Source: a virus (lineage: Duplodnaviria; Caudoviricetes). Taken from it: a stretch of 52,827 bases of DNA. Under the pieces are notes generated by a model, which saw nothing but the letters and a program-made list of their open reading frames with translations, searched no databases and was not told the DNA's origin. This document shows positions 2,755 to 2,779 of the stretch, piece after piece. The stretch covers positions 1 through 52,827 of the IMG/VR virus record IMGVR_UViG_3300027852_000046; one strand, given 5' to 3'. A program made the position numbers and the translations under genes. The first letter of the stretch is position 1; each line of letters opens with the position of its first letter.

Positions 2755-2779
2755 TGTTCCGCTTATTACGCTGTTAGGC
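2755..2779 (+). other. attI-like site
   Basis: TGTTCCGCTTATTACGCTG|TTAGGC. Confidence 0.75.

Follow-up and report, generated by a model that had tools for sequence, protein, structure and literature searches.

A short motif that closes seven cassette arrays of a virus record resembles the attI site of Cycloclasticus-family integrons

Integrons are bacterial gene-capture platforms and are also known as a bacterial store of anti-phage genes. To our knowledge, the entry of cassettes into phage genomes has so far been unexplained, though phage-borne attC clusters have been reported. The accessible part of Qi et al. 2023 (PMC9892861) describes CALINs (attC clusters without integrase) for virulent phages and, for temperate phages, complete as well as partial integrons, reports that IntI1 recombined five of six tested virulent-phage attCs into attI1, and, in a figure legend, assigns attI1 two further direct-repeat binding sites. 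That part of the paper contains no description of a dispersed attI-like site anchoring arrays. Likewise, we found no description of dispersed attI-like sites in phages in the accessible portions of the literature, including 10.1101/2024.07.02.601686, nor of a dispersed phage attI in the literature on Cycloclasticus integrons.

Here, we analyzed the whole of the virus record IMGVR_UViG_3300027852_000046 (the window; 52,827 nt, no end repeats), whose ORFs gave profile matches to an SU10-type portal, a terminase, and NinG. Judging from GC skew and ORFs, transcription is leftward near both the left (1-7,600) and right ends and rightward between. A sequence-only reading had described a 19-bp attI-like motif in seven copies, each at an array end. 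The seven copies were confirmed, and none is expected by chance: the 22-mer TGTTCCGCTTATTACGCTGTTA had six matches in the record versus none in 100 dinucleotide shuffles, while the seventh copy carries one inserted base (CAGCAGTAAT...; Table 1). In the gene-sense direction all seven read TAA/CAGCGTAATAAGCGGAAC, with AAA next in six of them (TTT on the other strand). All copies have one orientation relative to local transcription, and the TAA of TAAC is in every case the stop codon of the preceding ORF. On the opposite strand, identity ends just after GTTA in all seven copies, as had been proposed, the next bases being TAT, GGC, GCT, TGT, TAC, GCT, and TAA. The strict GTTRRRY consensus fits only one copy (GTTAGGC), GTTA occurs in seven of seven, and the local attCs are equally relaxed. 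Each copy closes a row of small ORFs spaced by attC-like imperfect palindromes.

Table 1. Positions of the motif copies and arrays in the record and of small recombinase genes in related contigs. Strand is that of the gene-sense reading; the strand of the 22-mer is given under details.
Feature	Positions	Strand	Details
Motif copy 1	212-233	-	exact 22-mer (+); sense TAACAGCGTAATAAGCGGAACA; closes array A; ~70 nt from the dusA-5'-like fragment
Motif copy 2	2755-2776	-	exact 22-mer (+); copy featured in the sequence-only reading; closes array B; HTH gene (2751-2536) starts 3 nt on
Motif copy 3	6748-6769	-	exact 22-mer (+); closes one-cassette array C (ORF 6958-6767)
Motif copy 4	8983-9004	+	22-mer (-) with one substitution, T to C in sense; closes array D after DNA methyltransferase cassette (8392-8985)
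Motif copy 5	13152-13173	+	exact 22-mer (-); closes array E; NinG gene start 2-5 nt on
Motif copy 6	22408-22430	+	22-mer (-) one base longer (CAGCAGTAATAAGCGGAAC), host-like spacing; closes array F; on the 3' side ORF 22510-22863, then portal gene
Motif copy 7	52358-52379	-	exact 22-mer (+); closes array G, which runs off the right record end
Array A	231-1528	-	4 small ORFs with attC-like sites; one 128-nt attC holds RBS and start codon
Array B	2774-5090	-	8 cassettes (attC body, then ORF); entry from sigma-70-like promoter 5074-5046
Array C	6767-7025	-	one cassette behind promoter-like site 7025-6997
Array D	7600-8985	+	ORF 7637-7957; 210-nt gene-free structured unit (8037-8246); methyltransferase cassette
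Array E	11950-13154	+	4 cassettes
Array F	20286-22410	+	6 cassettes
Array G	52377-52827	-	one full cassette and one cut at the contig end
Small recombinase gene	L098:7769-8413		temperate phage-like contig
Small recombinase gene	L097:648-1292		temperate phage-like contig
Small recombinase gene	L111:6001-6645		temperate phage-like contig
Small recombinase gene	L117:8004-8636		temperate phage-like contig

The imperfect palindromes between cassette ORFs are 55-129 nt long and follow the sense-strand pattern TAAC-GCTTTAGTTAAGCC...GGATTGAA-AGACTT-GTTATA. A crude version of the attC pattern matched 32 times in the record; 20 of the matches lie inside the seven arrays, which make up 17.6% of it, and 18 of those 20 are on the gene-sense strand. 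Curation gave 19 attCs in the arrays, with at least two in a row and no integrase nearby. As a reference we used the aadA1 attC of a real class 1 integron, from plasmid R100. The gene-sense strand aligned better to its bottom than to its top strand for ten of ten short attCs (mean score 17.5 versus 5.9), and the attC at 20678-20737 is ~75% identical to it. Thus, the hairpins are classical attC sites, with the phage genes on the classical bottom strand, and within each cassette the attC body precedes the gene, opposite to the classical order. At the ends away from the motif, the arrays have half-sites, for which an attI model does not fully account. Among the record ORFs, Pfam matches included a Lar-like and a nucleoside 2-deoxyribosyltransferase-like protein, which we assigned by eye to 21348-21677 and 21717-22157 in array F.

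Next, we examined how well the box preceding each ORF (GTT + 9 nt) pairs with the one at its stop codon (9 nt + AAC) in 26 units curated by eye, leaving out one array A unit with a degenerate box and the array-leading half-sites. On average, 5.9 of the 9 variable positions were complementary between the boxes flanking one ORF (26 cassettes), versus 3.8 for the two boxes of a single attC (19 pairs) and 3.66 for all other pairings, and the observed total was reached in 0 of 20,000 permutations. Complementary runs in the seven motif-adjacent cassettes measured 5, 6, 6, 5, 6, 3, and 5, and the array-leading units that were kept (c1 and c14) scored low, at 2 and 3. This is the pattern that would be expected of cassettes that circularize and re-insert by crossover inside the box.

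Several attCs also carry coding information. Four of 128-129 nt (738-865, 8247-8375, 21353-21480, and 52583-52710) hold an RBS and a start codon in the loop, and a comparable long attC occurs in a relative (L098:7400-7522). In three of the four, the reading frame of the peptide MQE(D/G)(T/K)RT...AGQDERLV(I/M) continues across the attC box and into the cassette ORF that follows; in the fourth, the peptide ends at the start of the methyltransferase gene. A second type of 82 nt (3295-3376 and 12547-12628) encodes the leader MSKANEETSQVGRLV, which at 3355 is fused to a cassette protein; an 85-87% identical copy of this attC lies in a prophage contig of a Cycloclasticus metagenome-assembled genome (MAG). 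Furthermore, long attCs at 4102-4227 and 1318-1410 specify a lipoprotein-type signal peptide in their loop and 3' box (MNKLKRT..LLAVSLTALLVVAC). Because it is fused to two different cassette proteins, the recombination site would itself supply an export signal. The gene-free unit of array D, between two attCs, folds far better than its shuffles (-92.9 kcal/mol, z = -5.3). Rfam gave no match for it (best E = 0.74), and this unit may represent a cassette with a structured RNA. A 199-nt inverted repeat (6789-6987 versus 7608-7806, 85%) places paralogous cassettes (MNIEKIMKDDWYKTASNEDM...) on either side of the divergent early promoter region, with the motif after one and an attC after the other. 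Last, an internal cassette recurs at the right end of the record (52697-52827 versus 512-642, 99%; 52584-52708 versus 739-863, 94%). Thus, assembly probably broke in this repeat, and the record may lack sequence between its ends.

The motif consists of an R-type box and the L-like stretch TAATAAGCGG, as in the attCs at 20945-21004 and 22157-22217, and the second half is absent. We found no inverted partner of its box within 250 nt downstream in 17 instances (7 in the record and 10 elsewhere), which bears out the earlier statement that the motif has no palindromic partner; 6 of the 17 gave only one-mismatch matches, which look chance-like. Nor did the 17 instances share a fold. The motif is in this respect a double-stranded, non-folding site like attI, and it lacks the R''-L''...L'-R' palindrome, folding single-stranded, that characterizes attC and is present in the surrounding repeats. 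The proposed division of the motif into an L box, a 5-bp spacer, and a core is one of two possible parses. We also considered a split attC, in which the motif would pair with a half-site at the far start of the next array, and rejected it, as the only reverse-complement matches of the motif are its own copies.

The placement of the copies might suggest a phage regulatory element at the start of each core block (a promoter for another factor, an operator, a translational element, or a processing site), but we regard this as very improbable. All seven copies are in sense orientation before core genes, two of them (2751 and 13176) have GCGGA 8-13 nt before the start codon, where an RBS would lie, and the homologous host region is the upstream region of intI. 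However, no sigma-70-like match overlaps the five copies scanned (1-14000), and neither an Rfam family nor a shared fold was found; the promoter and RNA-family ideas were rejected on these grounds. Moreover, the distance to the next start codon varies from 2 to ~80 nt, a scan of 77 ORFs revealed neither sigma factor nor RNA polymerase genes, and the motif always abuts a cassette box and recurs in phages with unrelated downstream genes. That cassettes would merely accumulate upstream of such an element seems just as remote.

A scan of metagenome contigs with an 18-mer gave 24 loci, seven of which looked genuine (L090, L094, L097, L098, L101, L106, and L109): in these the motif follows a YATAA stop codon, and attCs of the record's types lie upstream. 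The other 17 were discarded as chance matches: they are embedded in unrelated sequence, lack a preceding TAA, and have no attC in their vicinity. The seven retained loci have only attCs and the motif in common with the record, and no genes. With L111 and L117 added, there are 17 motif instances in all, in unrelated gene contexts. In the 14 ungapped instances, positions -3 to +18 are invariant save +3, +6, and +12 (conserved in 13, 12, and 13 of 14), while the flanks are unrelated on both sides. A decayed motif in L131 (TTAACAGCGTAATCCAATAACC) shows how an unmaintained copy may look.

Pairs of relatives revealed cassette turnover at the motif. Between L101 and L109 (99.7% identity), a single 295-nt unit makes the difference: it consists of an attC body and the downstream ORF, has AAC boxes as borders, and shows perfect complementarity between its boxes GTTATACG and CGTATAAC. 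L106 and L109, at 99.2% identity over 1294 nt starting at the motif, have different cassettes directly upstream. L098 and L111 share a backbone of 94-97% identity and carry four versus two unrelated cassettes between backbone and motif; homology is lost before the array and is back exactly at TATAAC and the motif. These differences define the cassette as attC body followed by gene, with the crossover in the 5' box on the sense strand. Thus, cassettes have been inserted and exchanged at the site, as they are at attI, in pairs that are all relatives of the record. The motif would then occupy the position of an attI, and its junction with the cassettes appears to be the classical crossover G/TT (AA/C on the gene-sense strand). 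An identical 58-nt attC in L111 and the record has unrelated ORFs on both sides, which argues for more than one kind of exchange, a single crossover being insufficient alone. With both flanks different, this attC was uninformative as to which gene travels with it, a question settled by the L101/L109 indel.

More distant relatives had none of these features. Megablast of 1-9200 against cultured phages returned no match, and terminase tblastn against named phages gave only matches below 60% identity from mixed hosts. In 80 terminase-related viral loci (38-59% identity), the motif was absent at up to five substitutions, and attC-like counts were near background. Exact matches were also absent for the 19-mer in viral contigs and for the 20-mer in 185,579 species genomes.

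These exact-word scans missed the host site because it differs by one base in length. In the family of the Cycloclasticus MAG, 18 of 22 genomes encode IntI above the TIGR02249 cut-off. Among ten intI loci, three (L136, L141, and L143) carry YATAAC/AGTGTTAATAAGCGGAA ~110 nt before the intI start on the intI-sense strand, and four (L137, L138, L142, and L144) carry the related form C-T[TA]GTTATTAAGGGGAA upstream of intI; of the remaining three, two had no clear match and one was unreadable. The host sequence AA/CAGTGTTAATAAGCGGAA agrees with the phage motif in 17 of 21 aligned columns, and the record copies overall agree in 16-17 of 20-21. A near-identical site thus lies at the cassette junction upstream of bona fide intI genes. 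Together with the cassette turnover at AA/C, this homology lends support from sequence comparison to the idea of a dispersed minimal attI that possibly mimics the host's.

The pattern AACAG-N2-3-TAATAAGCGG occurred in 13 of the 22 family genomes (at most four copies each) versus 3 of 179 other sampled genomes of the order. Of 12 host motif loci fetched, two have an intact IntI downstream (L151 and L154), two have remnants, and the rest face housekeeping genes; nine had no IntI match downstream, within ~1.5 kb in most. The sequence is thus not strictly tied to a live integrase. The family genomes behind these loci (L148-L159, from G008-G027) have up to four copies of a conserved region of ~110 nt, comprising attI and the sequence upstream of intI; the copies adjoin housekeeping genes such as recJ, and most of the fetched loci lack an intact intI, some showing remnants.

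The host region contains two tandem units of ~35 nt. L094, L106, and L109 align with the host attI-intI spacer along a collapsed single unit (z = 6.0-6.1), and the record copies showed no alignment to the host region beyond ~20 nt (z -1.6 to 2.6). As the record copies keep only the first ~18-21 nt, we call them minimal. This trimming counts against an attI reading, since the host region is conserved over ~110 nt with a second repeat unit, and the simple site of class 1 attI1 does not suffice for full activity. The commonest form in the record is one base shorter than the host site, while the 22408 copy and that of L111 have the host length, the L111 variant standing before a recombinase gene. 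It had been suggested that the extra base makes the copy at 22411 inactive; we found no support for this, as its spacing is that of the host attI, the variant precedes the recombinase in L111, and a different variant one base longer, likewise of host length, occurs in two other phages (G003 and G004). Because the spacing is the host's own, this copy is not evidently inactive.

In a 19-kb host array, the attC pattern had 13 matches versus 3 on the other strand, with the same polarity as in the phage, and 23 of 27 ORFs are directed away from intI, whereas phage cassette genes are directed towards the motif. No cassette proteins were common to this array and the record. DNA matches of 1-14000 to the family genomes consisted of attCs (83-90% identical) and a dusA-like fragment, and attCs with 85-90% identity to those of the record are present in the prophage contig of the Cycloclasticus MAG. 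From site similarity, G+C content, and the dusA-like fragment, a host in the Cycloclasticus family is probable. The fragment itself (24-140, plus strand) encodes ...TLSVAPMMDWTD, resembling the 5'-terminal part of tRNA-dihydrouridine synthase A (dusA), and its DNA is 75-77% identical to two Cycloclasticus-family genomes. As dusA is a known integration hotspot, 24-140 may be an attachment site, hinting at a temperate lifestyle or a prophage border.

The shortness of the copies also invites the view that they are passive scars, left when arrays and the first attI bases were copied by homologous or illegitimate recombination from host integrons or other phages. Only ~18-21 nt of the ~110-nt host attI region are left in the record, where no integrase was found; the phage has general recombination genes of its own (YqaJ exonuclease, NinB, and NinG); L101 and L109 share array and motif and differ right after the motif; and nine of the 12 fetched host copies have no IntI match nearby. 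We nevertheless consider such an origin improbable, because 18 nt are (nearly) invariant over 17 instances with dissimilar flanks, while a decayed copy is known for contrast. In addition, the borders of the cassette indel and of the replacements fall at the AAC box and not anywhere within the repeats, and box complementarity extends to the motif-adjacent cassettes. It is similarly doubtful that the copies are relics, or 18-22 bp of homology helping general recombination, with no site-specific insertion in the phage.

If cassettes are inserted at the motif, a recombinase has to act there. Six-frame searches of the 52.8-kb record with PF00589 and TIGR02249 gave no match, Pfam found no recombinase among 67 of 83 record ORFs plus 10 more, and tblastn with the small recombinase described below found none in the record. 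Activity thus depends on a putative supply in trans. An attI lies at an array end next to an intI gene, and no such gene adjoins the arrays of this record, which may be incomplete: end repeats are absent, the sequence breaks off within a repeat, and the missing part could contain a recombinase gene.

In four relatives (L097, L098, L111, and L117), the motif stands directly before a tyrosine recombinase gene of 210-214 aa (PF00589, E = 1e-19), 0-2 nt before its RBS, the motif of L117 being diverged. The four proteins are 86-97% identical, and a full-length integrase-like gene lies 2-3 kb beyond in those contigs. A copy of 86% identity occurs in the Cycloclasticus sp. MAG behind a diverged motif, which is present once in that genome. 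The 214-aa protein scored 24.8 bits against the TIGR02249 cut-off of 265, its best matches being the catalytic domains of XerC, XerD, and XerA; it consists of a catalytic domain only, without an N-terminal DNA-binding domain, and has neither the ~320 aa nor the specific extra domain of an IntI. Besides the small enzyme, PF00589 matched twice more in the L111 virus (G002), within open frames of ~345-350 aa; a 338-aa integrase-like ORF accounts for one of these. Thus, the small enzyme is not needed for lysogeny.

This gene raises the alternative that the motif is the docking site of the 214-aa Xer-like recombinase of temperate phages or prophages, used when the phage infects a lysogen, rather than of IntI. 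The position before the RBS speaks for it, as do the further PF00589 frames of the L111 virus, the restriction of the L098/L111 difference to cassettes between the backbone and the motif with its recombinase, and the attCs of the MAG prophage contig, so close to those of the record. We nonetheless judge it unlikely, as the motif is homologous to a site beside true IntI genes, the attCs are classical, the score lies far below that of integron integrases, and an N-terminal DNA-binding domain is lacking. Distant homologues of the enzyme (42-58% identity, 12 loci) have neither motif nor attCs nearby, and the gene could simply have landed beside a captured attI.

Eight viral loci carry the record's attC type, and the records behind five were searched. 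G004 (39.6 kb, estimated complete) has three and G003 two copies of a one-base-longer form, CAGCGGTAATAAGCGGCAC, the only motif form in these two; no tyrosine recombinase was found in G004. In two complete phages, G005 and G007, both with terminal repeats, attC arrays are present, and neither motif nor recombinase was found. In the L111 virus, a second array contains a decayed motif and terminates in a full attC. Thus, the claim that the motif anchors every array holds within the record and does not extend to these phages. In L094, and after the motif in L127 and L129, two to three direct repeats of CTTTCCGCA follow the longer motif, inverted relative to its GCGGAA; by analogy with the direct repeats of attI1, they may be extra binding sites.

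Weighing these readings, we consider it fairly likely that the motif is a trimmed, multi-copy attI of the host type, at which cassettes would be inserted by a recombinase supplied in trans. The phage probably borrows an enzyme made by the host or by a resident prophage, with host IntI as the most likely first candidate and the small Xer-like enzyme as the second. Such a tyrosine recombinase would bind the motif, with CAGCG-TAATAAGCGGAAC as the conserved arm and the cassette-derived RYYYAA box as the variable one. It would pair the motif, including the short copies of the record, with the folded attC bottom strand of a circular cassette and exchange strands at AA/C (G/TT opposite), so that the cassette ends up adjacent to the motif on its upstream side, relative to transcription. 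Cassettes would be read through from phage promoters, with the stop codon inside the crossover box, and the seven sites would allow the phage to load and swap small accessory genes in seven transcription contexts. A bolder version, to which we give somewhat less credence than to its denial, is that the phage parasitizes the host integron, offering seven trimmed attI copies that the host integrase or the prophage mini-recombinase loads with cassettes. With the same reserve, it might draw on a phage-specific pool of reversed cassettes, whose attC loops bring RBSs, leaders, and lipoprotein signal peptides.

A multi-copy docking site of the host type in a record without its own integrase would offer a concrete route by which a host or prophage enzyme loads cassettes at defined sites. 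If this is true, the cassette pools of a bacterium, its prophages, and other phages are linked, the mosaic rows of small early genes in these phages are explained, and a minimal attI of ~20 bp may suffice in nature. The reversed cassette, with attC ahead of the gene, bears on expression without an integron promoter. If the host integron is parasitized, phages also use it as a store and delivery route for accessory or counter-defence genes.

The motif shares with attI1 (R100/In2) the crossover G/TTA and a variable right half that comes from the cassette. By eye, an imperfect inverted box can also be read in both, at 3 nt on the left (CTAAAAC-AAA-GTTA in attI1 versus TTATTAC-GCT-GTTA here). In contrast to the motif, attI1 adjoins intI1, and the two have no similarity beyond GTTA. 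The CALINs in the accessible part of Qi et al. (PMC9892861) are, like the arrays of the record, phage-borne classical attC arrays without integrase that include methyltransferase cassettes; there, the co-oriented cassettes of two phages are called the typical structure, whereas the genes of the record lie on the attC bottom strand. Secondary (attG) insertion and ΔattI-type cassettes, as given in the available text of 10.1101/2022.09.11.507474 and PMC12901181, likewise place cassettes or att fragments outside the canonical platform; attG sites are short and degenerate in those texts, whereas the record has a conserved 18-nt arm, homologous to a real attI, at every array end. From the chromosomal attI of the Cycloclasticus family (L136, L141, L143, L151, and L154), the phage differs in having seven copies, none beside intI, with only the first ~18-21 of ~110 nt and a commonest form one base shorter, and in cassette genes that run towards the site instead of away from it. 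The two sites nevertheless agree in 16-17 of 20-21 columns at the crossover-proximal end; both are non-palindromic, lie at the junction with the first cassette, and have the same strand polarity relative to the attCs and the recombinase gene.
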